Assembly (NCBI GenBank): GCA_043806035.1
Contig: JAZDHK010000006.1
Location: 1-16,092, forward strand
Length of the DNA stretch: 16,092 bases
Direction: 5' to 3'
DNA from: an archaeon
Lineage (GTDB): Archaea; Nanobdellota; Nanobdellia; Woesearchaeales; UBA9642
The position numbers and the translations under genes were made by a program. Below, piece after piece: positions 1 to 15,802 of the stretch (position 1 is its first letter; each line of letters opens with the position of its first letter). The notes under the pieces were generated by a model. The model made no database searches and was not told the DNA's origin. It was given only the letters and a program-made list of their open reading frames with translations.

Positions 1-4
1 TCAT
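1..4 (-). CDS. Start of a further gene running off the left edge (partial)
   Basis: The minus strand reads ...AACAGGTGAAAAAC-ATG-A. This is an AGGTGA Shine-Dalgarno site followed by ATG at 4..2, about 40 nt after the stop of the DUF6638-like gene. Confidence 0.55.
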
Positions 5-44: not shown

Positions 45-1445
45 TCATATATCTCTCTGTCTTGCAGTTCGGTTTTGCCGCAAGACCTTAACTAGGTAGT
101 CTTTCATATTGTTGTCAGCATCCTGGAATGTATTTTCCAAGCTACGCCTATCATAGGTGAGCATGGTTTCGTAATCGTACGGCCAGAGCCTTGTCAAGAG
201 TGCAGGCACGATGCCTTTTGCCTCTGCCATGGTCGGGGTGAGCAGTGCGGCTTTCGCCTCTGCACTCACGTGCTCTATCAGTTTTTCAAACGTGAAGCCT
301 TTCCGCAGGTCAAGCCGTATCTTTGCCAGTTCTGTTGCATGCTCATAGACGTTCTGCGCGTCAATTTTCATCTTGGTAAGCTCTGATGGCCTGGGTCTCT
401 GCAATTTGCTTGCCCGCTCGACGGCGTTTGTCGGATCGATGCCTCTCTTCAAGAGATAGACGTCTTCCAATCGTGAAATCCTCTTTTCGAGGAGTGCAGG
501 ATCATACCGTGCGAAATTGTACGTGAGGAGGAAAGAGACAATGCTTTCCTTGTCCGTGATGGGGAGGTATTGTACTGTGGGTCCGTCTTCTGGCGTGAAC
601 TCGTTCGGCGTGTAGATGACCATGGTCTTCTTGCCTGTTGAGACCGTCTGCCGCTCAATCCGTTCTGCGCTCTTCTTCGGTGCCAGTCTGGCAAGGATGA
701 GTGCCTGCAACAGCGCATCATTGGAAGAGGAGAAACTCGGCCTCCTTATCGGCGCAGTCTCCGTTTGAGTATCATAATTCCTGAAAACGAACAAACCATT
801 GAAGAATCTCGTGCTGAATGTGCTCACGTCTGTCGTGAGCGTGATATCGTGAATGTCGTACTTGCTCACATCACCGACCTGTTCCACTAAGGTATAGATC
901 CTTTTCGGCAACGCCTCATCATTTGCAATCAGCCGTTCCGGTCCTTTCTCTGGATCGTTCAGTTGTGCAAGAAGATCCTTAAGTTCTCTTGCCATGCCTA
1001 TGAATCCTGACGGGGTGTCCAAGTGTAGCTTGACCTTGTTCACAAGCAGTAAGTCTTCCAAACTCGTATACGTGCTCATTCCGTCGTCAAGCTCACCATA
1101 AAGTGAATCGACACGGGTGATGATATCTATACCTTGCATGAACTGCTCGTATAACGCGTCCAGGATCCTGCTGTCGAAGGAAAATTCCTCATGCAGCAAC
1201 GTAGCATCTTTCTGGTTCGGACTGACGACAATGGCGAATCGCTGCGCAGGGCTCGTCTGAAGGTAATTATCTCCCAGTTCCTGTTCTACCTCAGCACTTT
1301 CGCCGCGCTTGTCGATGAAGAACTTTTTCAGTGCAGTAGTCTTGCCCACTGCTTTCTGCAGCGCGGCATTGTACAGGTCAACAAGCACACCATCTACCTT
1401 AACCAGATTATCCTGCACTATGCCTTCGCCAGCGAGGGTTCTCAT
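45..1445 (-). CDS. DUF6638-like conserved hypothetical protein (466 aa)
   Basis: Long ORF with an ATGA overlap with the AAA gene stop. The N-terminal pattern (LVDLYNAAL..TALKKFFID..G.S.EV..ELGD.YL..R.AIVVSP.QK.A.LL) resembles, from memory, DUF6638 proteins encoded after an AAA ATPase in Alphaproteobacteria and Bacteroidota. Confidence 0.75.
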   Translation of the reverse strand: MRTLAGEGIVQDNLVKVDGVLVDLYNAALQKAVGKTTALKKFFIDKRGESAEVEQELGDNYLQTSPAQRFAIVVSPNQKDATLLHEEFSFDSRILDALYEQFMQGIDIITRVDSLYGELDDGMSTYTSLEDLLLVNKVKLHLDTPSGFIGMARELKDLLAQLNDPEKGPERLIANDEALPKRIYTLVEQVGDVSKYDIHDITLTTDVSTFSTRFFNGLFVFRNYDTQTETAPIRRPSFSSSNDALLQALILARLAPKKSAERIERQTVSTGKKTMVIYTPNEFTPEDGPTVQYLPITDKESIVSFLLTYNFARYDPALLEKRISRLEDVYLLKRGIDPTNAVERASKLQRPRPSELTKMKIDAQNVYEHATELAKIRLDLRKGFTFEKLIEHVSAEAKAALLTPTMAEAKGIVPALLTRLWPYDYETMLTYDRRSLENTFQDADNNMKDYLVKVLRQNRTARQRDI

Positions 1446-3424
1446 TGCTTGTCATCTCCCTTTGCGTCCTTTCCACTTTTCATTATGCCGTCAAGGACCA
1501 GCTGCATGCCACCTTGCAAGGATTGCAATTTAAGATATTCACTGTCTGCCCCTTTCTCGACCTGCCCCTCGAAGTAGCGCAAGCGTCCTTCCACTTGATG
1601 CGCAAGGGCCTTCTCTTCAGCCTCGACTGCTTCAGCCTTATCATTCGCTGTATATCTTTCTTCGGAGTCCGCATACCTTTGCGCTTCCTGCCAGAGCATA
1701 TCCGGCGTTATAGGGACATAGAGCTTGCCCACCATTGCCAGTTTCTCCGCATATGGTTTGTCGAAATATGCCTTCCTGTCCTTGAGCCATTCTTCAGGCA
1801 CGTCGAAGTCCGCAGCCCTCTCCTTAATCGCTTCCGTGATTGCTTTCATGGATCGTCCGGTGATGCTGGGGTTTTTTGCTTTCAAGTCTGCCATGAACTT
1901 ACCGAAGTCAAGAATGCTTGACTTCCCGTATTTTCTGAATTCGTCAGCCATGTAGTCCTGGACGTTCTTCTGGGACCAGTGGCCTGATTCGTCCTGCACG
2001 TCTTGCGTGGCAAAAGGCACGGCTCCGTTTTCCATCTTGAGCAGTCCTCGATTCATGAGCCTGCCCATGGTGAGGTGTATCATATCTGCGAAGTCCTCTG
2101 CAGTCTTAGGACCATCAATTAATGCCCTGTACTGGAATCTGTTTCTCATGGCTTCGTCGAGTCCTGTCGGTTTGTTTGATGCGGCAAAGTTGATGACGTT
2201 TCCCAGTCTCATCGTGAATGCGCCGTCCAAGTACTGCATGAGTATGTTGTTGATGTCGTTGTCAGCACCCTGTGCCTCTTTTCTTGTTGATGTCAAGAGG
2301 TCGATATCGTCAAGGATGCCTATAACCAAGGCAGTCGGGTCCTTTGCAACGTTGAGCCTTTCAAGGAGTATCTTGCCCGATTTGCCGTAATACTCATCCT
2401 TGATGGATTGGTCGACGGTGAAAATCTGATAGGGAACATCTAATGCTGTCGCGTACTCTCGTAGGAGGGTCATGGCCATCCTAAACATCGATGTCTTTCC
2501 CGTTCCTGGAGGCCCGTCGAAAAGCACTGACCAGTACAGGCCGCCTATATCCATGACGGGGTTCTTCTTCTCATTGAAATCGTACAGGAACAGCCGTTGG
2601 ACGTTCCTCTTGATGACGCGCTTCGCGCTCTGATTGCCCACAATTTCATTTTCGGTGATGGGCACAAACGTGAGCTGGCTTGCTGACGTCTTCACGATAG
2701 GCATGCTCTTGTTCTCGTATCCTTCAAGAGCGATGACTTCCTTTTCTTCCTTGCCCTTGCCGGAAAGGACTCTGAAGCGATGTCCTTCGAGATGTTCATT
2801 CATGTCCGTGAATGTGTCCTTCCGGTCTCTTGTCTGGTTCGCCCAGTGCTCAAAAAGTTCGAGAGCATACAGTGGGAAGTCGTATTGTGTCTTGAAGACT
2901 TGTTTCCCACCTGACACATGCTTGTTTAGTATTGCGAACAAAGGCGCGACAAGCTGATTACGCACGGTCAATTCTGGTTTTGTGGTATCGATTGCAAACC
3001 CTTTGAAGTCGGGCTTGTCCTTGATCGCGCTAAGGTCGATGTGACCATTAAGTAGGTCTTCGAGCTTTCGTTGCACGAAGGATGAGGCGACAAACGTCGC
3101 ATAATTGTACACAAAATCTTTTGTGTGCACCAGTACAGGATCCGTGCCTGTGCTGTTTACAAGCTTATCACCGAGCTCGACTTTTTTTCCGATATCATCA
3201 GCAATTGCCTTGAAGACTTGTAATCCTTGGCGTATGGTGATGTACGCTTCTGTCTCGAGCGGGTTCATGATGCATGGTTCGTCCTCATCAAGCTGGTTCA
3301 TCAGATCAGTGAGATCGAGTTTGAGCTGGCCGAGCGTGAAGGACTGTAGTCTGCTCTCTACTTCTTGCTGGTATGTCTTTAATCGTTCAGGTGTTATGTC
3401 TACTGGTGCTTTTGCGTTAACCAA
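1442..3424 (-). CDS. AAA+ ATPase (classical AAA clade) with long N-terminal domain (660 aa)
   Basis: Walker A GPPGTGKT, pore loop EYYGKS, Walker B IGILDDID, sensor-1 AASN and SRH LDEAMRNRF. TTG start preceded by GAGGGG, with an 8-nt overlap with the upstream gene. Confidence 0.93.
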   Translation of the reverse strand: MVNAKAPVDITPERLKTYQQEVESRLQSFTLGQLKLDLTDLMNQLDEDEPCIMNPLETEAYITIRQGLQVFKAIADDIGKKVELGDKLVNSTGTDPVLVHTKDFVYNYATFVASSFVQRKLEDLLNGHIDLSAIKDKPDFKGFAIDTTKPELTVRNQLVAPLFAILNKHVSGGKQVFKTQYDFPLYALELFEHWANQTRDRKDTFTDMNEHLEGHRFRVLSGKGKEEKEVIALEGYENKSMPIVKTSASQLTFVPITENEIVGNQSAKRVIKRNVQRLFLYDFNEKKNPVMDIGGLYWSVLFDGPPGTGKTSMFRMAMTLLREYATALDVPYQIFTVDQSIKDEYYGKSGKILLERLNVAKDPTALVIGILDDIDLLTSTRKEAQGADNDINNILMQYLDGAFTMRLGNVINFAASNKPTGLDEAMRNRFQYRALIDGPKTAEDFADMIHLTMGRLMNRGLLKMENGAVPFATQDVQDESGHWSQKNVQDYMADEFRKYGKSSILDFGKFMADLKAKNPSITGRSMKAITEAIKERAADFDVPEEWLKDRKAYFDKPYAEKLAMVGKLYVPITPDMLWQEAQRYADSEERYTANDKAEAVEAEEKALAHQVEGRLRYFEGQVEKGADSEYLKLQSLQGGMQLVLDGIMKSGKDAKGDDKQ

Positions 3425-4541
3425 GGATATCCCCTCTTGTATCTATTCCGTATATCATCGCCTTGCCCAGATCCAGTTTGTGGTTATGCACTTCTGGAAT
3501 GAGGACGTGAGGCATGAGCATGTAACGTGGTGAGGCGACGACGTCCGAGAAGACGCCGATGTGCCTATCGCCTGATTTCCAGGCATCCCATTTTTTGCCT
3601 ATTCCTGTTACTTCCTGCTCCTCAATGCACGTAACGAACATGCGTTGGTAGCAGAGGATGGCATGATCCTTATCTTGGATGAGTGCGGCTATCGCTTCGT
3701 TATTGTTCGTGAATTTCGTGAAGAACGGCCCAAGATCATATCGTTCTACCGCGCGTACCTGGACTCCTTCGATGGCATCGACAGCTTCTGCGAGTTCCTG
3801 CAATTCGAGGCCGACCATGCCTTCCAATGTTTTGGCCACGGTCTGTGCAAGCTCTGCCTGCCATTCCTTTTTTCGTATGCTCTTTTCTGGCACATCGAGA
3901 TAGAGTGTATAAAAGTGAGGTATGTTGTTGTAAGGGTCAAGCACCTCTACATTCTGGATGAGCTTGAATTTTTCTCCTGCTCGTTTGACTACTTCAAGCT
4001 CGTGCAGCCGTCTCGTGACAGGAATGTCCAATGCTGCTAGGCGTTCCAGATAGAGTCGTTTGTGCATGGCGAGCATCATGTCTGATGGGTAGAGCTTTCT
4101 CCGTAAGAGATAGTCTGCCCGCTCGACGATTTGCTTTGCAGAAGGCAATGCTGCAAGCTGTTGCTGCACTGTTGCCTTGTCCTGCTCGAGCACGTACATG
4201 TCGCGCATGATGACCGGATAGCCTGATTCAGACGGATCTATAGCGCAGTCTTGTTTGATGTCGCCGTTGATCGATTTTGCTTCTATGATATTTCGGAGCA
4301 GGACGAGATCGAGGCTTGATCTTAGACGAGCCATGTATTGCAGCAATGCTTGATTGTTACCGCCGACTTCTACGGGCAGTTTTTTAGAGATAAGATCCAC
4401 CATGGATCCGAGCATGTCCTTTAGCTTTGTCAGGTGCGTCACTGCATCCTGGTCAGATAGTTGTTTCAAGTCGTTTTGGATGGTGAAATTTAGAGTGGAC
4501 ATTCCCTGTAATGAATCATTGCCGGAAAGCGTGTCTGTCAT
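3417..4541 (-). CDS. Conserved hypothetical protein of the AAA/DUF6638 module (374 aa)
   Basis: GGTGA SD just before the ATG. The ID..ESGYP..D...L..LP..P....R.Y.E.L pattern resembles, from memory, the gene preceding the AAA ATPase in the bacterial DUF6638 operon. Confidence 0.8.
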   Translation of the reverse strand: MTDTLSGNDSLQGMSTLNFTIQNDLKQLSDQDAVTHLTKLKDMLGSMVDLISKKLPVEVGGNNQALLQYMARLRSSLDLVLLRNIIEAKSINGDIKQDCAIDPSESGYPVIMRDMYVLEQDKATVQQQLAALPSAKQIVERADYLLRRKLYPSDMMLAMHKRLYLERLAALDIPVTRRLHELEVVKRAGEKFKLIQNVEVLDPYNNIPHFYTLYLDVPEKSIRKKEWQAELAQTVAKTLEGMVGLELQELAEAVDAIEGVQVRAVERYDLGPFFTKFTNNNEAIAALIQDKDHAILCYQRMFVTCIEEQEVTGIGKKWDAWKSGDRHIGVFSDVVASPRYMLMPHVLIPEVHNHKLDLGKAMIYGIDTRGDILG

Positions 4542-4555
4542 GGTCTCACCGTATG

Positions 4556-4579
4556 AATAAAAAAAGATAATAAAAAAAA
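4556..4579 (-). terminator. Oligo-T tract, likely archaeal intrinsic terminator or attenuator inside the module
   Basis: The minus strand has two T runs (TTTTTTTT ATTATC TTTTTTT) immediately after the TAA of the coiled-coil gene. Confidence 0.55.
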
Positions 4580-5722
4580 TTAGATGCCGTCGCCACTCGA
4601 ACTGTTTGCGTATCGCTCAGCAAGCGTCCTCTGCGAGTTCTCAATGACCTTGCCATAGCGAACGTCGAAGTCATGGACTTCTTCCTTGAGCTTGTCAATG
4701 AGGGTCTTGACGACTTCAGCTGCAACAGTTTCTTTTTCGGTCTCGCTAGTGATTCTGTCCTTGATGACCTGTGCCATCTGGCTACCAATTCTGAGCGATT
4801 CCTGCGTTGCATAATTGAAGCTCTGGTTCGTGTCAACAGTTGCTTCTGCGATCTCCATGAGCTTCTTTGCCTTCGCACCTGCGAGCAGGATCTGCGTGCC
4901 GTCCTCAACCTTTTCCCTAATTTGGTTGGCTGCGATACCGAAGTTCCTGATGACCAACGAATAGTTGTCTCGTTGCACTTTGTTCGGCTCCATGAGTTCG
5001 CCGGCAATCTTGTAGATCATGGATACTTCGTCATATGCTGACTGGGTAGGCACGATCTTGCCGTGCTTGAGGTCCTTCAGTTCAGTCTCCAGCTTGACTC
5101 TGGTTGCAGGGTCTGCAGTCTCGAGCTGCTCTTCTAATGCTTTGTATTGTGCTTCGAGCGCATCGAGCTTCTCTTTCAGTTCTGCTTGCTTGGGCTGGCT
5201 CAATTCCAGCTTCTTTGCGAGCAGTTCAACTGTGCTTGCAAGTCCTTCATACTGCTTTATTGCTACTGCTCTGACTTGCAGCAGTTCACTGACGACTGCT
5301 GTTGCATATTTAATAATGGTTCTGAGATTCTGTTCAGGAGTCTGCGTCTTAAGACGTTCGTTTCTCCATTGCTTTGCTTTTGAAGGCCAAAACCACTTGA
5401 CGAGTTTTTCCGAGCCTTCGTATTGGCCGACTTTGCCCATGAATTCAGTGTACTGGTTGAGTTTCTCTGCCAGTCCTGACGTGAGCGTTCCGATATTGTC
5501 CTGGAATGCCTGGAATGCCTGGAAGCCTTCCTTCATGGTGTTAAGCTTTGCTAGCTGCGTTTCTTTCTGCTGCCTCAAATCGACGGTGCCGCCTGCCAAT
5601 GCTTGCTCCAGTCCCCTCATGCTTTCCATCATGTCGCTGGAACTGAGTTTCGTCTTTAGGCCACGAAGGTCTTGTAACGTTTTCAGGTCTTCATCGCCAT
5701 ATACTTGTTTTGTTTCTACCAT
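4580..5722 (-). CDS. Long coiled-coil protein, first gene of the AAA/DUF6638 module (about 380 aa)
   Basis: Heptad-rich helical sequence (ELKEKLDALEAQYKALEEQLE; RVKLETELKDLK) with a short amphipathic WFWP segment. The start is moved to ATG 5722 (MVETKQ) because AGGAGAGGG lies upstream; the ORF-track start is 5743. Confidence 0.85.
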   Translation of the reverse strand: MVETKQVYGDEDLKTLQDLRGLKTKLSSSDMMESMRGLEQALAGGTVDLRQQKETQLAKLNTMKEGFQAFQAFQDNIGTLTSGLAEKLNQYTEFMGKVGQYEGSEKLVKWFWPSKAKQWRNERLKTQTPEQNLRTIIKYATAVVSELLQVRAVAIKQYEGLASTVELLAKKLELSQPKQAELKEKLDALEAQYKALEEQLETADPATRVKLETELKDLKHGKIVPTQSAYDEVSMIYKIAGELMEPNKVQRDNYSLVIRNFGIAANQIREKVEDGTQILLAGAKAKKLMEIAEATVDTNQSFNYATQESLRIGSQMAQVIKDRITSETEKETVAAEVVKTLIDKLKEEVHDFDVRYGKVIENSQRTLAERYANSSSGDGI

Positions 5723-5808
5723 TCTTGATCCCTCTCCTTTCATCCTTTTTGTTTATGTTCCTCGTAACTCACCAATATTATTACTAAGCAGTGAGGAATG
5801 TGCTTTCC

Positions 5809-5984: not shown

Positions 5985-6737
5985 TCAGGCCCTGAAACCG
6001 AGCAGGTACGTCTCGACGAGCTTTCGCTTGCTTCCGTCGACGTCGTTCTTGAAATTGTACTGCTGGTCAAGCTCCATGCCATTCTGCGCAGCAGACTTTT
6101 TGAGATCTGCAAGCACATCAGAACGCGCACTTGCGCTTGTTGGCAGACGTTCCTCTGCATACTTGTAGAACTTCAAGACCGTCTCGAGATGAGGCTTAAA
6201 GAGGACCCTCTTGCCGTCGCCGATGCCCGCATACTTCGTCTCGAGCTCTTCAGCAGTCGGCCAGTACTTCCTGAACTTAGTCTCTGCGACGTTCTTTGTC
6301 ATGGTGCCAAGCCGCGAGAGCAGGCTGACACCTTCCTGGCCGTACTTCTTCGCAGCTTCCCCCTTGTCCTGCAAAACCTGCTTCACTTTGTCAGCATCAT
6401 ACCTGCCATTTGTCGTCAATGAGTCGATAGCAGATTGGTAGCTCTCCCTGATTGCAGCAAGTGCATCATTAAGATAGCCTCTTCCTGTCTGCAGGTAGCC
6501 ACCTTTCTCTTGGACGCTTGCATGTATATCCCGTACTGTTTTTACACCGTTATCGACAACATCTGCGATGTCGCCAATAACACCCTCTCTCGTCTCGAGC
6601 TGGTGCTCGATGTCATTGGCAGTCTTCTTCACTTTGCGCCTAACGCCTCGTGCTACATTGACAAATCCTTCAACAATGCTCTGAAGTCCTTGACGTATTT
6701 CACCCTTCTCAGCGGGCATATTCTTTTCATCAGTCAT
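5985..6737 (-). CDS. Hypothetical amphipathic alpha-helical protein (250 aa)
   Basis: ATG at 6737 is preceded by GGGAGGAG. The sequence is helical with no catalytic motif, and the gene is followed by an oligo-T tract. Confidence 0.8.
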   Translation of the reverse strand: MTDEKNMPAEKGEIRQGLQSIVEGFVNVARGVRRKVKKTANDIEHQLETREGVIGDIADVVDNGVKTVRDIHASVQEKGGYLQTGRGYLNDALAAIRESYQSAIDSLTTNGRYDADKVKQVLQDKGEAAKKYGQEGVSLLSRLGTMTKNVAETKFRKYWPTAEELETKYAGIGDGKRVLFKPHLETVLKFYKYAEERLPTSASARSDVLADLKKSAAQNGMELDQQYNFKNDVDGSKRKLVETYLLGFRA

Positions 6738-6777
6738 AGTCTCTCCTCCCACCCTTGCTAGGGGGAATTCGTTTTAC

Positions 6778-6851: not shown

Positions 6852-6924
6852 GAAGGCGGACACTGTCCTTGGTTATAGGCAGCACCAGAGCAAGACAAGG
6901 GTGTTGCCGGTGCGAGGAGATATC

Positions 6925-7932
6925 ATGGCAGGCCGTATCGACTATGAAAGCATGGAAGAGAACATCAAGATCGACGTCAAGGACAAGCGGATTCTCAGCT
7001 TGCTCGCCGAAAATGCACGAACCCCGCTTACTGCCATCGCAAAGAAAGTCCAGCTGAGCAGGGATGCTGTCGACTATCGGATCAAGCGGCTGCAGAAGGA
7101 CGGTGTCATCCAGCGCTTCTTCGCATCGGTCAATTATGAGAAGCTCGGCTACTACGTCTTCCATGTCTTTTACTTGCTCGATGAGGTGAACAAGGAACAG
7201 TACAGACAGCTCATGGAGCATCTCAAGAAGCACCCGAACATCATCAGCATCATCGAATACAATGACCGTTGGGACATCCACGTGGAGATGATTGCCAGGA
7301 ACCTCATCGAATTCGACATCATCCTCTCCGAGATCGCCTCGAAATACCCGGATACGATCGTCGAGAAGGACAAGGCAGAAATCATCAGGAGCTACAGCAA
7401 CAATTTCGTGCCGCCGCTCATCGCCGGGCAGGAGAGCATCAAGATCGTACAGAAGCAGCCCGTACCCGTGAAGGTCGACGATACCGACCTCAAATTATTG
7501 CGGCTGCTCTGCGAGGATTGCAGGGCCTCGACGTATCAGCTGGCACAGCAGCTGCACATCAGCCCCGATACCGTCGGGTATAGGATTCAGAACCTGCTCA
7601 AGGAGGAGGTCATCACCAAGTTCACCATCCAGGTGAATTATTCGAAGATGAAGTACATCCTGTACACGTTCAGCATCGGCATGAAGATGTTCGACCTCGC
7701 CAACGAGCAGAAGTTCAAGAGCTTCCTCGACAAAAACCTCAACATCCTCAAGAGCACCAAGACGCTCGGCGGGTGGGACTTGCTGCTCTACATCGTGGTA
7801 CAGCACCCCCGCGAATATCATGCACTGGTGAAAGACATGAAAGCGACGTTCACAAACATCATCAGGAGCTACCAGACGTGGATCGCGTACAAGGAATACA
7901 TCTACGAGCCGCTGCCCGCAGTGATCAAGTGA
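6925..7932 (+). CDS. Lrp/AsnC family transcriptional regulator, tandem duplicated (HTH-RAM-HTH-RAM, 335 aa)
   Basis: Two Lrp HTH signatures: DVKDKRILSLLAENARTPLTAIAKKVQLSRDAVDYRIKRLQKDGVI and DDTDLKLLRLLCEDCRASTYQLAQQLHISPDTVGYRIQNLLKEEVI. Each is followed by a RAM domain (DRWD, GGWD). GAGGAG SD before ATG 6925. Confidence 0.95.
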   Translation: MAGRIDYESMEENIKIDVKDKRILSLLAENARTPLTAIAKKVQLSRDAVDYRIKRLQKDGVIQRFFASVNYEKLGYYVFHVFYLLDEVNKEQYRQLMEHLKKHPNIISIIEYNDRWDIHVEMIARNLIEFDIILSEIASKYPDTIVEKDKAEIIRSYSNNFVPPLIAGQESIKIVQKQPVPVKVDDTDLKLLRLLCEDCRASTYQLAQQLHISPDTVGYRIQNLLKEEVITKFTIQVNYSKMKYILYTFSIGMKMFDLANEQKFKSFLDKNLNILKSTKTLGGWDLLLYIVVQHPREYHALVKDMKATFTNIIRSYQTWIAYKEYIYEPLPAVIK

Positions 7933-9427: not shown

Positions 9428-10384
9428 CTATAAATACGCGTACTTGTACTCTTCATAGGCTGGCATGGTCTCGAACTGCGTGATCCCGAAAACATTCCTG
9501 AGTTCGAGTATCGTTTCATGCAGCTGTTCTGTTTTCTCAATGCACAGATAGCAGAGCACATCATACTTGCCCAGGCATGTCGTCGCCCAGAGCACGTGCT
9601 TCTGCAGGCGCAGATGATTGAGCACTTTCTCTGACTCGAGCGTCGAGAGCAGCACGGCATGGACGTCGTAGCCGAGCGCTGCATAATTGATGACAGGCAC
9701 GTAGTTGAGGATGACGCCTTCTTTCTCGAGACGTCGTACCCGCTGCAATACACTGTCATGGCTCATGCCCAGCTGAGGCCCTAATTGGTAGAACGGCTCG
9801 CGCGCATTCCGCGAGATGCTTTTCAGGATGAGTATGTCCTTCTCGTCGACAGCAACCTGTCCTTCATGGGCACGATCTGGTTCGACGCTTCCGAAACTTC
9901 GTGGGAAAACACGATGCACAGCCTGCCCGGTGAGAATGTGCACGTCAGAAGAAAAAAAGGATCCCCCAGCACGCAGGATCCCTGCCATCATGACGCTGCA
10001 TTCTTGATTCGTCCTCGCATGGAGTGCGAGTTCATAGTCGTATTTTCCCGTGTACTTGATAACGGCAGCGATGCCGTCCATCTGCTTGAGCATGTTGCGG
10101 AATTGCAGTTCTTGCTCTTTCGTGATACTGCGAAATTGGAGGAAACAGTGGAATGATTCGTAGCCAAGCGCGTGCATGTTGATGACTGCCCTGAATCCTT
10201 GGATGATGCCTTCTTCGGCAAGCTTCGTAATCCGGTAGCGCACAGCATCTCTGGAAACTCTGCACTGCCTGCCGAGCATGGTGTAGGTTGCTCGCGCATT
10301 ACGCGCAAGACCTCTGAGAATCTTCCCATCCTTCTCGTCCAGACGTATTTTATCGGAAGTCTCATGCTGCTGAATATACCTCAT
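9428..10384 (-). CDS. Lrp/AsnC family transcriptional regulator, tandem duplicated (318 aa)
   Basis: Two HTH signatures (LDEKDGKILRGLARNARATY...VRYRITKLAEEGII; VDEKDILILKSISRNAREPF...VLQRVRRLEKEGVI), each followed by a RAM domain with GKYD. Confidence 0.95.
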   Translation of the reverse strand: MRYIQQHETSDKIRLDEKDGKILRGLARNARATYTMLGRQCRVSRDAVRYRITKLAEEGIIQGFRAVINMHALGYESFHCFLQFRSITKEQELQFRNMLKQMDGIAAVIKYTGKYDYELALHARTNQECSVMMAGILRAGGSFFSSDVHILTGQAVHRVFPRSFGSVEPDRAHEGQVAVDEKDILILKSISRNAREPFYQLGPQLGMSHDSVLQRVRRLEKEGVILNYVPVINYAALGYDVHAVLLSTLESEKVLNHLRLQKHVLWATTCLGKYDVLCYLCIEKTEQLHETILELRNVFGITQFETMPAYEEYKYAYL

Positions 10385-10488: not shown

Positions 10489-11073
10489 ATGAACGCACCA
10501 GAACACGATTGGATACATACCTTCGAGCAGCTCAGCAGGACGACACGACAACTCTCCTCTGACCTGCCCTACCACAACGCAGAACACGCATTCGACGTGT
10601 GCACAGAAGTGCTCTCGCTCAGCAAGAACCTGCCTTGGAACGAACGCTACCTCTTAGGAACTGCAGCATTGCTGCACGATATCGAGTACAAAGTAGGCTA
10701 TGCGCAGAATGAAGAGCATGCTGTAGGATTCGCTGAACGCTACCTGCCTCACCTCGGTTATGTCCCACAGGAGATACAGCGCATCAGCGAGCACATCCTC
10801 TCGACGAAACTAGGATCTCCTCTCAAGAACGAGTATAGCGCGTATCTCGTCGACGCTGATCTTGCCAATCTCGGCAGAACAGACTTTTTCGAGAAGAACG
10901 AACTGCTCAGGAAGGAATGGTGTGGCAAAGATGGAAAGGAATGGCAAGAGAGAGCGCTTGCTTTCCTCAGCCAGCACACCTATCGCACGAAGGAAGCGCA
11001 GGAACAATATGATGAGCAGAAGCGAAAGAACATCGAGTGCATGCTCGAGAAGGTGAAGGTATATGCTTCTTGA
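10489..11073 (+). CDS. HD-domain metal-dependent phosphohydrolase, phosphodiesterase-like (194 aa)
   Basis: Motifs YHNAEHAFDV, AALLHD, NEE and DADL. GGTGG SD before ATG 10489. Confidence 0.9.
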   Translation: MNAPEHDWIHTFEQLSRTTRQLSSDLPYHNAEHAFDVCTEVLSLSKNLPWNERYLLGTAALLHDIEYKVGYAQNEEHAVGFAERYLPHLGYVPQEIQRISEHILSTKLGSPLKNEYSAYLVDADLANLGRTDFFEKNELLRKEWCGKDGKEWQERALAFLSQHTYRTKEAQEQYDEQKRKNIECMLEKVKVYAS

Positions 11074-12199
11074 GGAACTCACCGACAAAACATACGTGCA
11101 TTGCGAACGGTACATCAATCTCTTCAAGAAAGTCAGCAACGACGTCAATCCGGACTACTGCGCCATCAACGGCCTTGAGCACTTCCTGCTGCCTCACGCA
11201 CTACTCCCCCCTAACGACGTACAGCTCTCTACAGCACAACCCCGTGAAGAACTGCTGCGCACGTTCGTGCATGACAAAGTCCTGTTTTTTGTGCATCCTG
11301 AAGAAGCAAGCACGTTCAATTTGCCTCTATCGTACACGACCATCGCCCGTCCTACAGCATCAACGAGAACAGTCATCCCTGACGGTGCGCAGTATGCGGT
11401 GAAGCTGCATCTGAACAAGCGACTCTCCCGATTCATCCGCAGGCTCACCGAGAGCAGCGTCCGGCACAGCATCGCCATATCTCGTGAGTTAGAAAAAGCA
11501 CGCATGCCTGCTTCGTTCGCATTCCTTCCTGAATGCATCGGCGTCTGCTACAACGATAGGGGCATGATCGTTCGCGACATGACTCCCAGACCTATAATAG
11601 AGAAAAGGCAGGTGCTCCCGCTCTTTAGTCTTTACGCTCCCGATCTCAAGGATGAAACACACATTCCATTTTTTAGGCAGCTCGTGGAAAAACACGATGC
11701 AGAACCGCTCGACTATTTCCTGACGAGCATCGTCAAGCCACTCTTCACAAATCTTGCGCATGCCATCCGAAACTATGGTCTGCTGCTCGAGCCGCACGGC
11801 CAGAACGTCCTCATCGAATTTGACAAGCAATGGAACATCACCCGACTCGTGCACAGGGATTTCCAGAGCATGTACGTCGACAATGACATCAGGAAGGAGA
11901 AAGGATTGGCATTGCCGTTCACCAAGCACATCATGGGAGAGGAATGCGCAAAAGAGATCAGCTACAGTCTTGTTTACGACAATTACGTCGGCAAATACGT
12001 CTTCGAGCCATTTACTGAGTATCTCCAACGCGATTTTGGCATTGAGAAGGAGAGGAGCAGAGCAGCAATACGTGAGTATTTTGCCAAGCTCATGCCACAG
12101 CACTGCTTCCCGAAAGGGCAGTATCTTATGGCACAGAACACGTTCAAGGACAACAACACGGAGGTGCAGTATTGTGATGAACGGGCAGCATTCAGATAG
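11063..12199 (+). CDS. IucA/IucC family (NRPS-independent siderophore synthetase-like) protein, short form (378 aa)
   Basis: The NIS motifs occur in the expected order: VHP, PTASTRT, VKL, RFIRRL, LPE, IVR, EPHGQN, RDFQ. AGGTGA SD; 11-nt overlap with the HD gene. Confidence 0.88.
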   Translation: MLLEELTDKTYVHCERYINLFKKVSNDVNPDYCAINGLEHFLLPHALLPPNDVQLSTAQPREELLRTFVHDKVLFFVHPEEASTFNLPLSYTTIARPTASTRTVIPDGAQYAVKLHLNKRLSRFIRRLTESSVRHSIAISRELEKARMPASFAFLPECIGVCYNDRGMIVRDMTPRPIIEKRQVLPLFSLYAPDLKDETHIPFFRQLVEKHDAEPLDYFLTSIVKPLFTNLAHAIRNYGLLLEPHGQNVLIEFDKQWNITRLVHRDFQSMYVDNDIRKEKGLALPFTKHIMGEECAKEISYSLVYDNYVGKYVFEPFTEYLQRDFGIEKERSRAAIREYFAKLMPQHCFPKGQYLMAQNTFKDNNTEVQYCDERAAFR

Positions 12200-12885: not shown

Positions 12886-13239
12886 ATGAGCAAATCAGCA
12901 GCGATAGCAGCAGGCATCATGAATGGGTGCCTGACGGGATTCATGGTTGGCATGGTAGATACCTGCATACACGGCAACACACCTATCGACGTTGCTTCTG
13001 CAGAGATTGCCAACACGATTGCTCCAACGCTGAGCACGAGCATCAGCGCCTACTTGGGCAAGGGATTCGTCTCCAAGAAGAAGAATATGCCCTCACCCAT
13101 GTCCCTGGACGACTACTTGAAAAAGAACCCGAAAGAATCTGCAGCAGCCAACACGGCGACGGCACTAGTGTACGCGAACATCGTCCATAGAGTAGTGTAC
13201 TATGGTCTTCGTCTGGCAGTCTATGGCCTGTCAAGATGA
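12886..13239 (+). CDS. Small hypothetical protein, possibly membrane-associated (117 aa)
   Basis: Ala/Gly-rich hydrophobic N-terminus (AAIAAGIMNGCLTGFMVGMV) and a hydrophobic C-terminus. The start is inferred from promoter spacing; the alternative is GTG 12829. Confidence 0.6.
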   Translation: MSKSAAIAAGIMNGCLTGFMVGMVDTCIHGNTPIDVASAEIANTIAPTLSTSISAYLGKGFVSKKKNMPSPMSLDDYLKKNPKESAAANTATALVYANIVHRVVYYGLRLAVYGLSR

Positions 13240-14067
13240 TGCAACGATTGCTTCCTGGACTTTCTCGAGCTCTGCAATCCGTTCCTTGAGCGGGGTTGCT
13301 TGAGAGAAAAAATGCCAAAAAACTTTTTCTAGCCAACCCACCCATAGCGGATCTTCTACGGCATAGAGCAGCGTCATGTCTTCAGTCAGCTCTTCTCCTT
13401 TGTATCGCGTCCTGTCCTTCTCGTCCTTCAGCAGGGCAACAGTTCCATCAAGGATAAAGCAACGCAATGGCTGGAAGCGATGCCGTATCTCGATGGCCTC
13501 ATATCCAAGTTTTTTGTTTATTTTGAGCAGCTCTTGTATGTTCTTCATCGTCGCAATGTCCACACGGGTGAGTATCTTTATGGACACTCCCCTTTTTGCT
13601 GCATCCTCAAGAGCAGACAAGCATGTTTTCTTCCCAGATGTCCAGGAGAGGTTGCCGCTGAAGTTCAGCAGGCTTTTTTTCGTTTCGAGAATGTGCTTGT
13701 TCAGAAGAACCTTGTATTTTTCGCCGACGCTGCGGACGGACTTTTTGCCTTGCACGTGCTGATAGAGGTCAAAAGGTTCAAATTCCTGTTTTGTCCTTCC
13801 CGTCTTTATCTGGGTGAGCAGTTCTTCCTGCACCGTGCTGGCATGAATCTTTTCAATGTGCGCCCAGTACACAATCTTCAGAGCCCCTTTCGTGCCTGGC
13901 CTGAACGTCTTCATGGCCAGCGTTCCATACTGAGCAATGATGTCTTCAACGTAGGATTCTGCGGTGCGCCAGTTCTTGCCGAGAAAATGGGCTACTTCCT
14001 GTATGGTGCGTGGCTGTGCGTAGACGAAATCCTGGATGTCTTTTGCCCGCTTGATGTCCAAAACCAC
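13231..14067 (-). CDS. TrmB-like transcriptional regulator (N-terminal winged HTH, C-terminal PLD-like effector domain, 278 aa)
   Basis: HTH PRTIQEVAHFLGKNWRTAESYVE. The C-terminal AAKRGVSIKIL...IEIRH...RCFILDG pattern fits a TrmB/PLD-like fold without an HKD motif. AGGTGA SD before the GTG start. Confidence 0.75.
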   Translation of the reverse strand: MVLDIKRAKDIQDFVYAQPRTIQEVAHFLGKNWRTAESYVEDIIAQYGTLAMKTFRPGTKGALKIVYWAHIEKIHASTVQEELLTQIKTGRTKQEFEPFDLYQHVQGKKSVRSVGEKYKVLLNKHILETKKSLLNFSGNLSWTSGKKTCLSALEDAAKRGVSIKILTRVDIATMKNIQELLKINKKLGYEAIEIRHRFQPLRCFILDGTVALLKDEKDRTRYKGEELTEDMTLLYAVEDPLWVGWLEKVFWHFFSQATPLKERIAELEKVQEAIVASS

Positions 14068-14099: not shown

Positions 14100-14789
14100 T
14101 TATTTATAGTTTACTGCTAATGGAATACAACTATATGCTAATTCAGGGATGCATGTTTCAGGTACTGCTTTCGATTGCTGCCCCTTGTCCTGCACCTGCT
14201 CCATCCAGGTCATGAACTGCTGCATTTCTTCCTCAAGAGAGAGGTCTTTGTCCAATTTGAGCAGGGATGTGCCGGTGAAGATGCGTTCCATGTGCGAGAA
14301 TCCGTCGTGCGCCGCGGCAAGATACGTCTTGTCTTCCTCGCGCCATTTCTTCCCTTTTGTTGTCCATCTGCGCTCAAGCCTCGTTACAATGGCATCAAGA
14401 GGTGGGACGAGCACGACAAGATGCGATGGCATGGCGTTATAGTGTGGTTCTGCACAAAATAATTGCTTGCGGAATTGCTCAAGCAAAAGATACTCTTCAG
14501 GAACTATCCATCCTATGTCCGCATACGCTTTCGTGTACACCATACCATCATACACGCACCTATCTACAAATACGGTCTTATCCGGGTATTCTTTGAGGAA
14601 TTCCTGCTGGTCTATCCATTCGTGGAAGTACTTGACGAGCTTTGCCCTGTTCCTCAGAAATGGTTCGTTGGATCTGGCAAATGAAAGTCTGTCTGGGTAG
14701 AGCACAAATCGTTCAGGATGCTGCTGCAGCAACGCATGCATGAATGTGCTCTTCCCCGCCCCGTGTGGGCCGGAGAAGCACACCATCAC
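14100..14789 (-). CDS. Deoxynucleoside kinase / thymidylate kinase-like P-loop protein (229 aa)
   Basis: Walker A FSGPHGAGKST, DRCVYDGMVY (the DR..D..Y motif of the dNK family) and LID RLERR...WREE. Overlaps the CYTH stop codon; GGTGA SD. Confidence 0.88.
   Translation of the reverse strand: MMVCFSGPHGAGKSTFMHALLQQHPERFVLYPDRLSFARSNEPFLRNRAKLVKYFHEWIDQQEFLKEYPDKTVFVDRCVYDGMVYTKAYADIGWIVPEEYLLLEQFRKQLFCAEPHYNAMPSHLVVLVPPLDAIVTRLERRWTTKGKKWREEDKTYLAAAHDGFSHMERIFTGTSLLKLDKDLSLEEEMQQFMTWMEQVQDKGQQSKAVPETCIPELAYSCIPLAVNYK
14101..14114 (-). promoter_or_regulatory. BRE + TATA promoter of the TrmB-like gene, embedded in the last codons of the kinase gene
   Basis: The minus strand reads GTAAAC-TATAAATA, which also encodes V-N-Y-K-stop. 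Confidence 0.6.
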
Positions 14790-15802
14790 GCTCTCACCCG
14801 TCTCCTTCTGGCTTTCACCGGCGGTGTCTCGAGCAGGAGCACATCATGCACCCCCGTCAGCTCTTGCACGCTCGTTGATAGTGCAATCTCGTTTCCAGAA
14901 ACGAAGTCGTACTTGCGTTCCTGCGTGGGCAGTAACTTCATACTGTAGCCTGCGTTAAGAGGAACGGAATTAAGACCGTAGCTCATGAGCAACGTGCTGT
15001 ACAAGTGAATCATCTCCTCGACAATCTGCCGCTCATCTCCTTTCTGCAATCCAGAAAAGCCAGGGATGAAGCCTGCATATTCCATCTCGAGCTGCACCTG
15101 TCTCCCCTCTCTACCATCAAGCAATTTTGCGTCACTCACCGTGCATCCATATTCCCTGCCTGTGTTGAGGTTGAGCAGGAAGAAATCACCCTTCGTCTTC
15201 TCGATCGTCCCTGCACGAGTGAGTTTGCCATCCTGGTTGAGACGAAGGATGGCTTGAGCAATTTCGTCGGGCGTCGTGGGAATCCTGGTCTCGTACCGTT
15301 TGAGGATGAACTGCTCGAGCGGCAAACCATACGAAAAAGGCTCGACGTGACCCTTCTCCTTCTTATAATAATTCCCTCCTTTGCAGATGATAACCAGTCT
15401 TTCTTCACCCTCTGTCGTGCCGTAGAACGTGTTCGTCCCTGTCGAGATGGCATTCACGGGATCCTTGAGAAACGTGCATCCTTTTGTCGGCTGCAAGTCG
15501 AGGCCGTCGAGAATCTGTTCTATCGTCGGCTCTTTGCCCTGCCCGGTAAGCTGGATGGCGAATTTTGCCTCGAGCTCATACTCGTCGCACTCTTTCGGGG
15601 CGGTCTTGAGATTTTGGTAGTCGTGCAGTTTTTTTATGAATCCCTGCTCATTGCCGTCAGCGACAAGCCCCTGATAGGCAGTGATGAGCACGCTTTTGTC
15701 CTGGCTCTTCAGGAATTCCCTGAATGCCTTCTTCAAGTCAGTGCTTTTGCTGCTCTGCCGCGATGTATACGTGTACCTATCCGAGTCATAACATCCACCC
15801 AT
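14786..15802 (-). CDS. CYTH-like (triphosphate tunnel metalloenzyme) protein with N-terminal extension (338 aa)
   Basis: ExExK signature YELEAKF, followed by KEKG, KRYE, IEKTK, QLEMEY and C-terminal RKY in the order expected for the CYTH tunnel. GAGGTG SD. Confidence 0.75.
   Translation of the reverse strand: MGGCYDSDRYTYTSRQSSKSTDLKKAFREFLKSQDKSVLITAYQGLVADGNEQGFIKKLHDYQNLKTAPKECDEYELEAKFAIQLTGQGKEPTIEQILDGLDLQPTKGCTFLKDPVNAISTGTNTFYGTTEGEERLVIICKGGNYYKKEKGHVEPFSYGLPLEQFILKRYETRIPTTPDEIAQAILRLNQDGKLTRAGTIEKTKGDFFLLNLNTGREYGCTVSDAKLLDGREGRQVQLEMEYAGFIPGFSGLQKGDERQIVEEMIHLYSTLLMSYGLNSVPLNAGYSMKLLPTQERKYDFVSGNEIALSTSVQELTGVHDVLLLETPPVKARRRRVRA

Follow-up and report, generated by a model that had tools for sequence, protein, structure and literature searches.

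We describe a module of four adjacent genes in an archaeon of the order Woesearchaeales (phylum Nanobdellota) and discuss what its products may do. The genes lie at the left end of a stretch of 16,092 nucleotides, referred to here as the window, which covers positions 1 to 16,092 of contig JAZDHK010000006.1 (C6) in assembly GCA_043806035.1. They encode a coiled-coil protein (CC), a protein that we call c2, an AAA ATPase, and a protein of the family DUF6638. The module is best filed as an AAA ATPase plus dedicated partner proteins, where the partners CC, c2, and DUF6638 are without described function. The evidence supports a four-gene core of a conserved, horizontally mobile machine: the core is invariant, c2 is coupled to the ATPase, and the transmembrane partners are exchangeable. 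Our favored reading, to which we assign a probability of about 0.35, is that the machine may be a membrane-associated AAA remodeler acting on a CC scaffold, similar to ESCRT-III/Vps4 but unrelated to it. The genes of the module are the following.

Positions 5743..4580, minus strand: CC, 387 aa, all-helical; a second ATG at 5722 gives a 380-aa form.
Positions 4541..3417, minus strand: c2, 374 aa, no known family.
Positions 3424..1442, minus strand: AAA ATPase, 660 aa, TTG start.
Positions 1445..45, minus strand: DUF6638 protein, 466 aa, two-domain alpha/beta.
Positions 4..2 (1..4), minus strand: fifth gene, start codon (ATG) only, preceded by aggtga and lying 40 nt past the DUF6638 stop.

A first-pass annotation, made from the letters of the window, described four co-directional genes of which the last three are translationally coupled, with a fifth gene starting at the left edge, and this description holds in each of its parts. 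The 4 open reading frames (ORFs) follow one another on the minus strand between positions 45 and 5743. A 38-nt gap separates CC from c2; c2 and the ATPase gene overlap by 8 nt and the ATPase and DUF6638 genes by 4 nt, and these three are considered coupled because their genes overlap. The c2/ATPase overlap is present in 15 of 16 loci measured. The 380-aa form of CC is the entry in the protein collection, in agreement with the end coordinate 5722 given in that annotation. The remainder of the fifth gene is missing, as the first base of the window is also the first base of contig C6; in relatives, its position is taken by c4 (approximately 296 aa), followed by c5 (approximately 600 aa, transmembrane). 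All 4 ORFs have same-order homologues elsewhere and are thus real genes, not chance ORFs. In a Pfam scan of the four proteins, the families above cut-off are AAA in the ATPase, DUF6638, and a borderline EAD9 in CC; an Rfam scan of the window gave no match.

The assignment of the module to an archaeon is also sound. Archaeal small-subunit and large-subunit rRNA are found on contig C15 of the same assembly (1.5 Mb, 93.7% complete, 2% contamination), and the GC content of C6 (0.489) is in line with that of the other contigs. Relatives within its taxonomic order have genomes of 0.6–1.7 Mb.

Gene order is conserved over large distances. The four genes keep their order from small-genome archaea to Vibrio and Sinorhizobium, a conservation that speaks for a single machine with a specific task. 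Scanning species-representative genomes for the pattern yielded 15 loci, and a metagenome scan yielded 10. The order CC, c2, ATPase, DUF6638 is intact in 12 of the 15 genome loci, and 2 more are short contigs with ATPase and DUF6638 only. The sole locus that departs from the gene order in either set is L016, from a Moduliflexus metagenome-assembled genome (MAG; CAZCGG010000075.1), where DUF6638 and c4 are present with no CC, c2, or ATPase gene within 10 kb upstream. All four genes are present in half of the metagenome loci (5/10); the other 5 are cut short, with the order unchanged. The carriers include Moduliflexota (UASB14, UASB270, Vecturithrix), Desulfobacteraceae, a Woesearchaeota archaeon, Euryarchaeota SM23-78, and other archaeal MAGs. 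Two relatives of the window's genome, G017 and G026, encode all four proteins in the same order at 24–43% identity. One further locus, L007 (G030:C138), is a distant variant: its ATPase is 27% identical to that of the window, and its DUF6638 match is weak (29 bits) and lies inside a 600-aa open frame, such that it may be a fused or divergent form.

The module is rare, patchy in distribution, and crosses domains. Among 41 related genomes, 4 carry DUF6638; in a sample of 401 genomes from the phylum, 9 do, and 7 of these 9 score above cut-off. The family is genuine, if uncommon: an exhaustive profile search of 1.84 billion proteins recovered 488 cluster representatives at E ≤ 1e-3, including 354 at E ≤ 1e-10 and 173 at E ≤ 1e-30. 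The window ATPase is 46–49% identical to the Moduliflexota and SM23-78 copies, compared to 43% within its own family/order. This identity pattern, together with the patchy distribution, therefore points to horizontal transfer of the module, as judged from sequence. In a tree of the ATPases, the window copy groups with the Woesearchaeota and G026 copies (support 82), and the bacterial copies form a nested clade; the tree was built by a quick method only, and no direction of transfer is read from it.

The module is also found in Proteobacteria. The first-pass annotation had pointed to an operon of the same gene order in Alphaproteobacteria, and this four-gene order is indeed present in Sinorhizobium, Shinella, and Rhizobium. 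A tblastn search of a plasmid collection located DUF6638 in 10 records, all large replicons, from Sinorhizobium, Shinella, Rhizobium leguminosarum, Vibrio parahaemolyticus, and V. vulnificus, and the module order is kept in 5/5 proteobacterial loci examined (Sinorhizobium, Shinella, Rhizobium, Vibrio). These loci encode a hypothetical protein of approximately 360 aa, a hypothetical protein of approximately 375 aa, an “ATP-binding protein” of approximately 635 aa, and then DUF6638. Profiles built from the archaeal-type proteins detect the following counterparts: the ATPases at approximately 1e-84, c2 at E 6e-19 and 2e-16, DUF6638 at 2e-54 and 1e-40 with both halves aligned (Sinorhizobium, Vibrio), and the Sinorhizobium CC at 4e-13. 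Profile–profile comparison by hhalign matches CC to the first operon gene at 95.7% in Vibrio and 96.6% in Sinorhizobium. The claim of synteny shared across domains is thus upheld by genome, metagenome, and proteobacterial loci alike.

In S. meliloti Ak57 (CP090106.1; L034 7054-8799), an endonuclease-domain gene and an IS4-like ISRm16 transposase lie between the ATPase and DUF6638 genes, and this insertion splits the operon. Although titled pSymB, the record CP090106.1 has a length of 3.7 Mb and contains genes of chromosomal type. The S. meliloti locus tag SMc02733, which may denote a gene of the operon, offers a lead: an intragenic fragment of it is among those recovered in a ChvI DNA-binding screen. 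Because the core is present in the tractable bacteria S. meliloti, Shinella, R. leguminosarum, and some Vibrio strains, its function is directly testable.

The ATPase matches PF00004 at 59 bits (cut-off 21.2) over residues 300–435 and consists of three parts: a family-specific N-domain (residues approximately 1–255), a single classic AAA module (300–435 plus the lid), and a conserved C-terminal helical region. In an alignment of 23 sequences, the Walker A motif GxPGTGK[ST] is invariant (23/23), as are R427, R429, and R433, the arginines of the second region of homology (SRH). Pore loop 1, also kept in 23/23, reads K-D-E-[YF]-Y-G, or Y-Q-G in Proteobacteria, and the C-terminal helical motif retains E580, R583, D586-S587-E588, and R590. 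By its Pfam match, Walker motifs, pore loop, and SRH arginines, the protein is a classic AAA ATPase, and the earlier description of a single-ring AAA with a pore loop is correct: the pore loop is aromatic. The Walker B motif departs from the standard. Classic AAA proteins usually place the catalytic Glu in this motif; here, the motif reads hhhDD(I/L)D, with Asp at that position in all 23 sequences, such that the protein may hydrolyze ATP slowly or act as a switch instead of unfolding processively. The nearest solved relatives are VAT (E 3e-13), Rpt4, Cdc48, Afg2, fidgetin-like 1, and CdvC/Vps4, which align over the AAA core only (approximately 256–530). The N-domain (1–255) and the C-terminal region have no relative. 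Members of the classic clade, including Vps4, Cdc48, PAN, and katanin, thread polypeptides. By analogy with this clade, the module ATPase is most likely a hexamer pulling on a polypeptide.

The DUF6638 protein scores 92.5 bits against PF20343 (gathering cut-off 27), with a match spanning residues 13–226, or model positions 4–214 of 439, that is, the N-terminal half. Its AlphaFold2 (AF2) model, built from 133 sequences, has a mean predicted local distance difference test (pLDDT) of 91.4 and a predicted template modeling score (pTM) of 0.86, and displays two alpha/beta domains. Foldseek found no match for this model at E ≤ 1e-3 among PDB structures and viral models, although with a query of more than 400 residues a single-domain match could escape; a wide search with VIA gave a best Z of 6.3 (78 residues, root-mean-square deviation 7.5), which is under the typical noise level. 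The c2 protein matches no Pfam family and has no PDB relative, and its alignment contains 20 invariant columns. Compared by hhalign, c2 and DUF6638 reach 0.5%, with no sign of paralogy. For these two proteins, the ESM Atlas offers models too poor to use (pLDDT 0.33 for DUF6638 and 0.37 for c2), and there were no feature matches. Profiles of CC, c2, c5, and DUF6638 retrieved nothing below E 0.01 from the PDB sequences.

As the product of a separately translated first gene, with its long hairpin, its hydrophobic-basic loop, and its conserved C-terminal motif, CC is the best candidate for a scaffold or substrate. Its AF2 model (18 sequences; pLDDT 61, pTM 0.49) contains two antiparallel helices, 136–209 and 212–306, with pLDDT 80–96 over residues 160–260; this generic long helical hairpin is the only structural element predicted with confidence. 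Conserved residues are found at the hairpin tip (P184/K190), in a near-invariant C-terminal E376-R377-Y, and in a loop that runs from G110-x-E112-K through a hydrophobic/aromatic stretch to K-A123-x3-R127-x2-R130. The first-pass annotation had proposed an amphipathic aromatic patch in this protein. A hydrophobic-then-basic stretch is conserved between the invariant G110 and R127/R130, but in a looser form than was claimed. Across 13 CC proteins, there is no transmembrane segment, in that no 19-residue window reaches a Kyte–Doolittle value of 1.6.

Comparison with family models gave no sign that CC belongs to the ESCRT-III, PspA/Vipp1, or TelA families. The Pfam models Snf7, PspA_IM30, and TelA have no match at E ≤ 0.01 in the whole genome. 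When 18 CC proteins were scanned at E ≤ 0.1, Snf7 (PF03357) was not among the first 25 of the 28 families matched; the hits are to sporadic coiled-coil families, such as PI3K_P85_iSH2 in 5 proteins, ING in 5, and EAD9 in 2. Against PspA/Vipp1 (PF04012), there is no Pfam match and hhalign reaches 0.8% (E 0.074); against TelA (PF05816), there is likewise no Pfam match and hhalign reaches 0.1%. The hhalign targets were four PspA proteins from module-bearing bacteria and the TelA of G042, with proteobacterial CC, at 96%, as the positive control. Two module-bearing bacteria carry true PspA genes (2 each) and one carries TelA, all elsewhere in the genome. Structural comparison, made with a model at pLDDT 61, excludes nothing. 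Using VIA, where helical matches below Z of approximately 13 count as noise, the top matches to CC are designed helical proteins, STAT coiled coils, and F-BAR (Z 10–12.8, in the noise range). The ESCRT-III hairpins score in the same manner and over the hairpin only (CHMP4B Z 9.5, Shrub 9.7, Snf7 9.4/9.1, Vps24 9.1). Foldseek returned no significant match, and PspA, Vipp1, and TelA are not among the best 50 rows of either search. As judged from these profile comparisons, membership of CC in the ESCRT-III, PspA, or TelA families is not supported.

A physical link between the ATPase and CC was probed by predicting a complex of the ATPase N-domain (1–255) with CC, using our own alignments, for which the calibration counts hold only roughly. 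The contact score is 0.53 (runs 0.48, 0.53, 0.54), and the best of 3 controls scores 0.00. Agreement between runs covers at least 93% of contacts, and partner pLDDT is at least 65. In calibration, 58 of 80 solved complexes attained the contact mark, as did 2 of 110 mismatched pairs; at scores of 0.60 or less, just 7 of the 80 solved complexes passed, as did both of the passing mismatches. These models lend weak support to docking of the ATPase on CC via its N-domain.

The connection to the membrane comes from genes downstream of the core. In most archaeal, Moduliflexota, and Desulfobacteraceae loci, DUF6638 is followed by c4 and c5: c4 is present in 11/15 genome loci and 5/10 metagenome loci, and c5, which is split in two in G017, in 10/15 and 2/10. 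The missing copies are mostly at contig ends; L008 is truly without both. Neither protein matches a Pfam family, and no homologue of either was found on the other contigs of the window's assembly. By hydropathy, c5 is the sole integral membrane protein of the set. Of 8 full-length members, 6 have a transmembrane helix near the N-terminus and 4 have one at the C-terminus. The N-terminal helix is preceded by approximately 50 conserved cytoplasmic residues, and a large, highly conserved domain bears NNGGY and D-x-N-G-D-G motifs, with sub-threshold EF-hand matches in 4/8 members. In Sinorhizobium and Shinella, a DUF2333 protein follows DUF6638 in place of c4/c5. It does not match c5, and in Sinorhizobium has two N-terminal hydrophobic segments above the hydropathy threshold. 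The Vibrio loci and R. leguminosarum have no membrane-protein neighbor after DUF6638. The searchable text of the literature mentions DUF2333 once, as an uncharacterized gene beside a type VI secretion system amidase. The membrane association proposed in the first-pass annotation is thus retained through c5 and DUF2333, both transmembrane, but only through genes outside the window.

These features can be assembled into a mechanism. In the remodeler reading, CC would sit on the membrane's inner face as a helical-hairpin scaffold or oligomer, bound through its hydrophobic-plus-basic loop. The ATPase hexamer would dock on CC by its family-specific N-domain; CC itself, or a client that it holds, would then be pulled on or remodeled by the aromatic pore loop. 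The c2 protein may serve as a stoichiometric adaptor or cofactor of the ATPase, and DUF6638 as a further subunit or client. The lineage-specific transmembrane partners would anchor the machine in the envelope and might also connect it to a signal from outside; these partners are c4/c5, with an extracytoplasmic domain in c5 that contains an EF-hand-like loop, and, in two rhizobia, DUF2333. The genes, their coupling, their order across domains, the ATPase motifs, the hairpin, and the transmembrane helices of the partners are observed. Polymerization, membrane binding, the identity of the substrate, and a physiological role in envelope remodeling or repair are the parts of this scheme that we infer. 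The most elaborate form of the scheme, an unrecognized archaeal–bacterial remodeling or repair machine in which a CC polymer is recycled by the AAA hexamer with obligatory c2 and DUF6638 and swappable transmembrane sensors, is unlikely to be correct.

Multiple observations weigh against the remodeler reading. By hydropathy, all four window proteins lack transmembrane segments, and the membrane partners, besides lying outside the window, are missing in L008, the Vibrio loci, and R. leguminosarum. For CC, no homology to any known membrane-remodeling family was detected; its model is of low confidence beyond the hairpin, and its fold matches are helical noise. The predicted N-domain/CC complex is a weak pass only, and all 23 ATPase sequences have Asp in place of the usual Walker B Glu.

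Of the alternatives, the one that fares best, though we consider it improbable, is that the ATPase is a chaperone or extractase for the membrane partner (c5/c4 or DUF2333), in the manner of Bcs1, Msp1, and FtsH-type AAA proteins with membrane clients, with c2, DUF6638, and CC as adaptors. The conserved cytoplasmic N-terminal stretch of c5 and its co-transcription in most loci fit such a role, as does the pore loop of the ATPase, and lineages exchange the membrane partner and retain the four-gene core. However, the core stands without an adjacent membrane gene in L008, two Vibrio loci, and R. leguminosarum, and the one pair tested for contact, N-domain and CC, gave a weak pass.

Somewhat less probable again is a biological-conflict system, in which the module would be an AAA sensor/effector complex directed against phages or mobile elements and spread horizontally. 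The patchy distribution (4/41 relatives and 9/401 phylum genomes) is suggestive of such systems, as is the identity of the ATPase to bacterial copies (46–48%), which matches that within its own family/order (43%). The ATPase also resembles the IetAS/IteA defense systems in having weak matches to their models (PADLOC IetA E 4.6e-8), and the window CC matches EAD9 (PF19962) at 26.1 bits with a cut-off of 25. Several observations speak against this reading. The IteA model NF042959 scores 31.5 bits against a cut-off of 510, and the match covers the generic AAA core only. EAD9 is found at E ≤ 0.1 in just 2 of 18 CC members, among many sporadic coiled-coil matches. The other three proteins match nothing in PADLOC, the partner protease of IetAS was not found, and no nuclease, protease, or other recognizable effector domain was detected in the module. 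There is no sign of a mobile-element or defense origin: the flanking genes are housekeeping genes that differ between loci, not defense islands, and no phage or PHROG link was found.

Finally, it is very doubtful that CC is a soluble alpha-helical pore-former of the ClyA type with the ATPase and partners as its chaperone or export apparatus: the tripartite toxins of this family are soluble helical bundles of approximately 330–370 aa with long antiparallel helices, they fill the top Foldseek rows at similar length (SmhB, AhlB, PaxB, MakA, Hbl, NheA), and AhlC reaches Z 9.7 in VIA, but nothing matches at E ≤ 1e-3 (the best, SmhB, has E 0.025 and TM-score 0.24), TM-scores are 0.14–0.27 on a model at pLDDT 61, no hydrophobic head or transmembrane-length segment is present in 13 CC proteins, CC is cytoplasmic by context, and no signal peptide or secretion-system genes were seen at the loci.

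The function of the module is undescribed in the searchable literature, and no mention of DUF6638 was found in the literature searched, supplementary files being outside the search. None of CC, c2, and DUF6638 has a solved relative, and DUF6638 has a confident predicted fold without a structural match. If the remodeler reading is true, an ESCRT-like remodeler built from other parts would represent an independent invention of polymer-plus-AAA membrane mechanics. If the module is a defense system or a membrane-protein chaperone instead, it would provide a new set of AAA partners and a new fold all the same.

The neighborhood of the module contains additional candidates for association with it.

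Positions 5985..6752, minus strand: c9, helical, 255 aa, directly upstream of CC on the same strand; a long T-rich stretch lies past its stop.
Positions 6901..7932, plus strand: c7, two AsnC-type helix-turn-helix (HTH) domains, divergent from the module.
Positions 9428..10384, minus strand: c7 paralogue, two AsnC-type HTH domains.

The c7 protein matches the AsnC-type HTH family of Pfam (HTH_AsnC-type) in 2 stretches, and both paralogues also match Lrp/AsnC ligand-binding or NirDL-like HTH models. Homologues of c7 lie upstream and divergent in the archaeal-type loci L011, L015, L017, L025, L027, and L030 and in none of the bacterial loci; by this arrangement, c7 is a candidate regulator of the archaeal version. 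The pair could be dedicated regulators or siroheme-decarboxylase-like proteins. The c9 protein matches no Pfam family and is not a paralogue of CC (hhalign 0.1%). Its homologues immediately precede CC in L027 and lie after c5 in L011, and because its position shifts among loci, a functional tie to the module is suggested; c9 is a possible accessory gene of the archaeal version. In the Woesearchaeota-type loci L020, L031, and L033, the module is immediately preceded, on the same strand, by a gene for an archaeal LonB-type protease (635 aa). Elsewhere in the window, positions 11063-12199 (plus strand) hold an ORF of 378 aa that weakly matches IucA/IucC and FhuF-like models, of the siderophore synthetase or ferric reductase type, which is unexpected for a 1.5-Mb archaeal genome. 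Positions 14100-14789 (minus strand) encode a deoxynucleoside-kinase-like P-loop protein (dNK, 40 bits), and the ORFs beside it, 13231-14067 and 14786-15802, belong to no family.

The functional analogy to ESCRT-III, PspA, and TelA that was proposed in the first-pass annotation is neither shown nor excluded. With Cdc48/VAT, PAN/Rpt, and katanin, the ATPase has in common the Walker A motif, the pore loop, and the SRH arginines. It differs in being a single ring rather than a tandem one and in the Walker B Asp. On the NCBIfam scale, it falls far below the cut-off of each of the CdvC, CDC48, PAN, and IteA models. CC is like PspA/Vipp1 and TelA in that it is soluble, all-helical, and proposed to act at the membrane under stress, and TelA is near CC in size. 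We know of no pairing of PspA or TelA with a classic-clade AAA unfoldase. From ESCRT-III/Vps4 (CdvB/CdvC), the module differs in several respects. The ATPase has neither MIT nor Vps4_C at E ≤ 0.1 in Pfam, and scores 44.4 bits against the CdvC model NF041006, where the cut-off is 650. CC is about twice the length of an ESCRT-III protein, and c2 and DUF6638 are without ESCRT counterparts. The likenesses are of architecture: the gene for a helical-hairpin protein stands next to one for a classic AAA of a single ring, whose pore loop is aromatic; the hairpin protein ends in a conserved extreme C-terminal motif (ERY in CC, the MIT-interacting motif in ESCRT-III); and the N-domain of the module ATPase is proposed to dock on the substrate.

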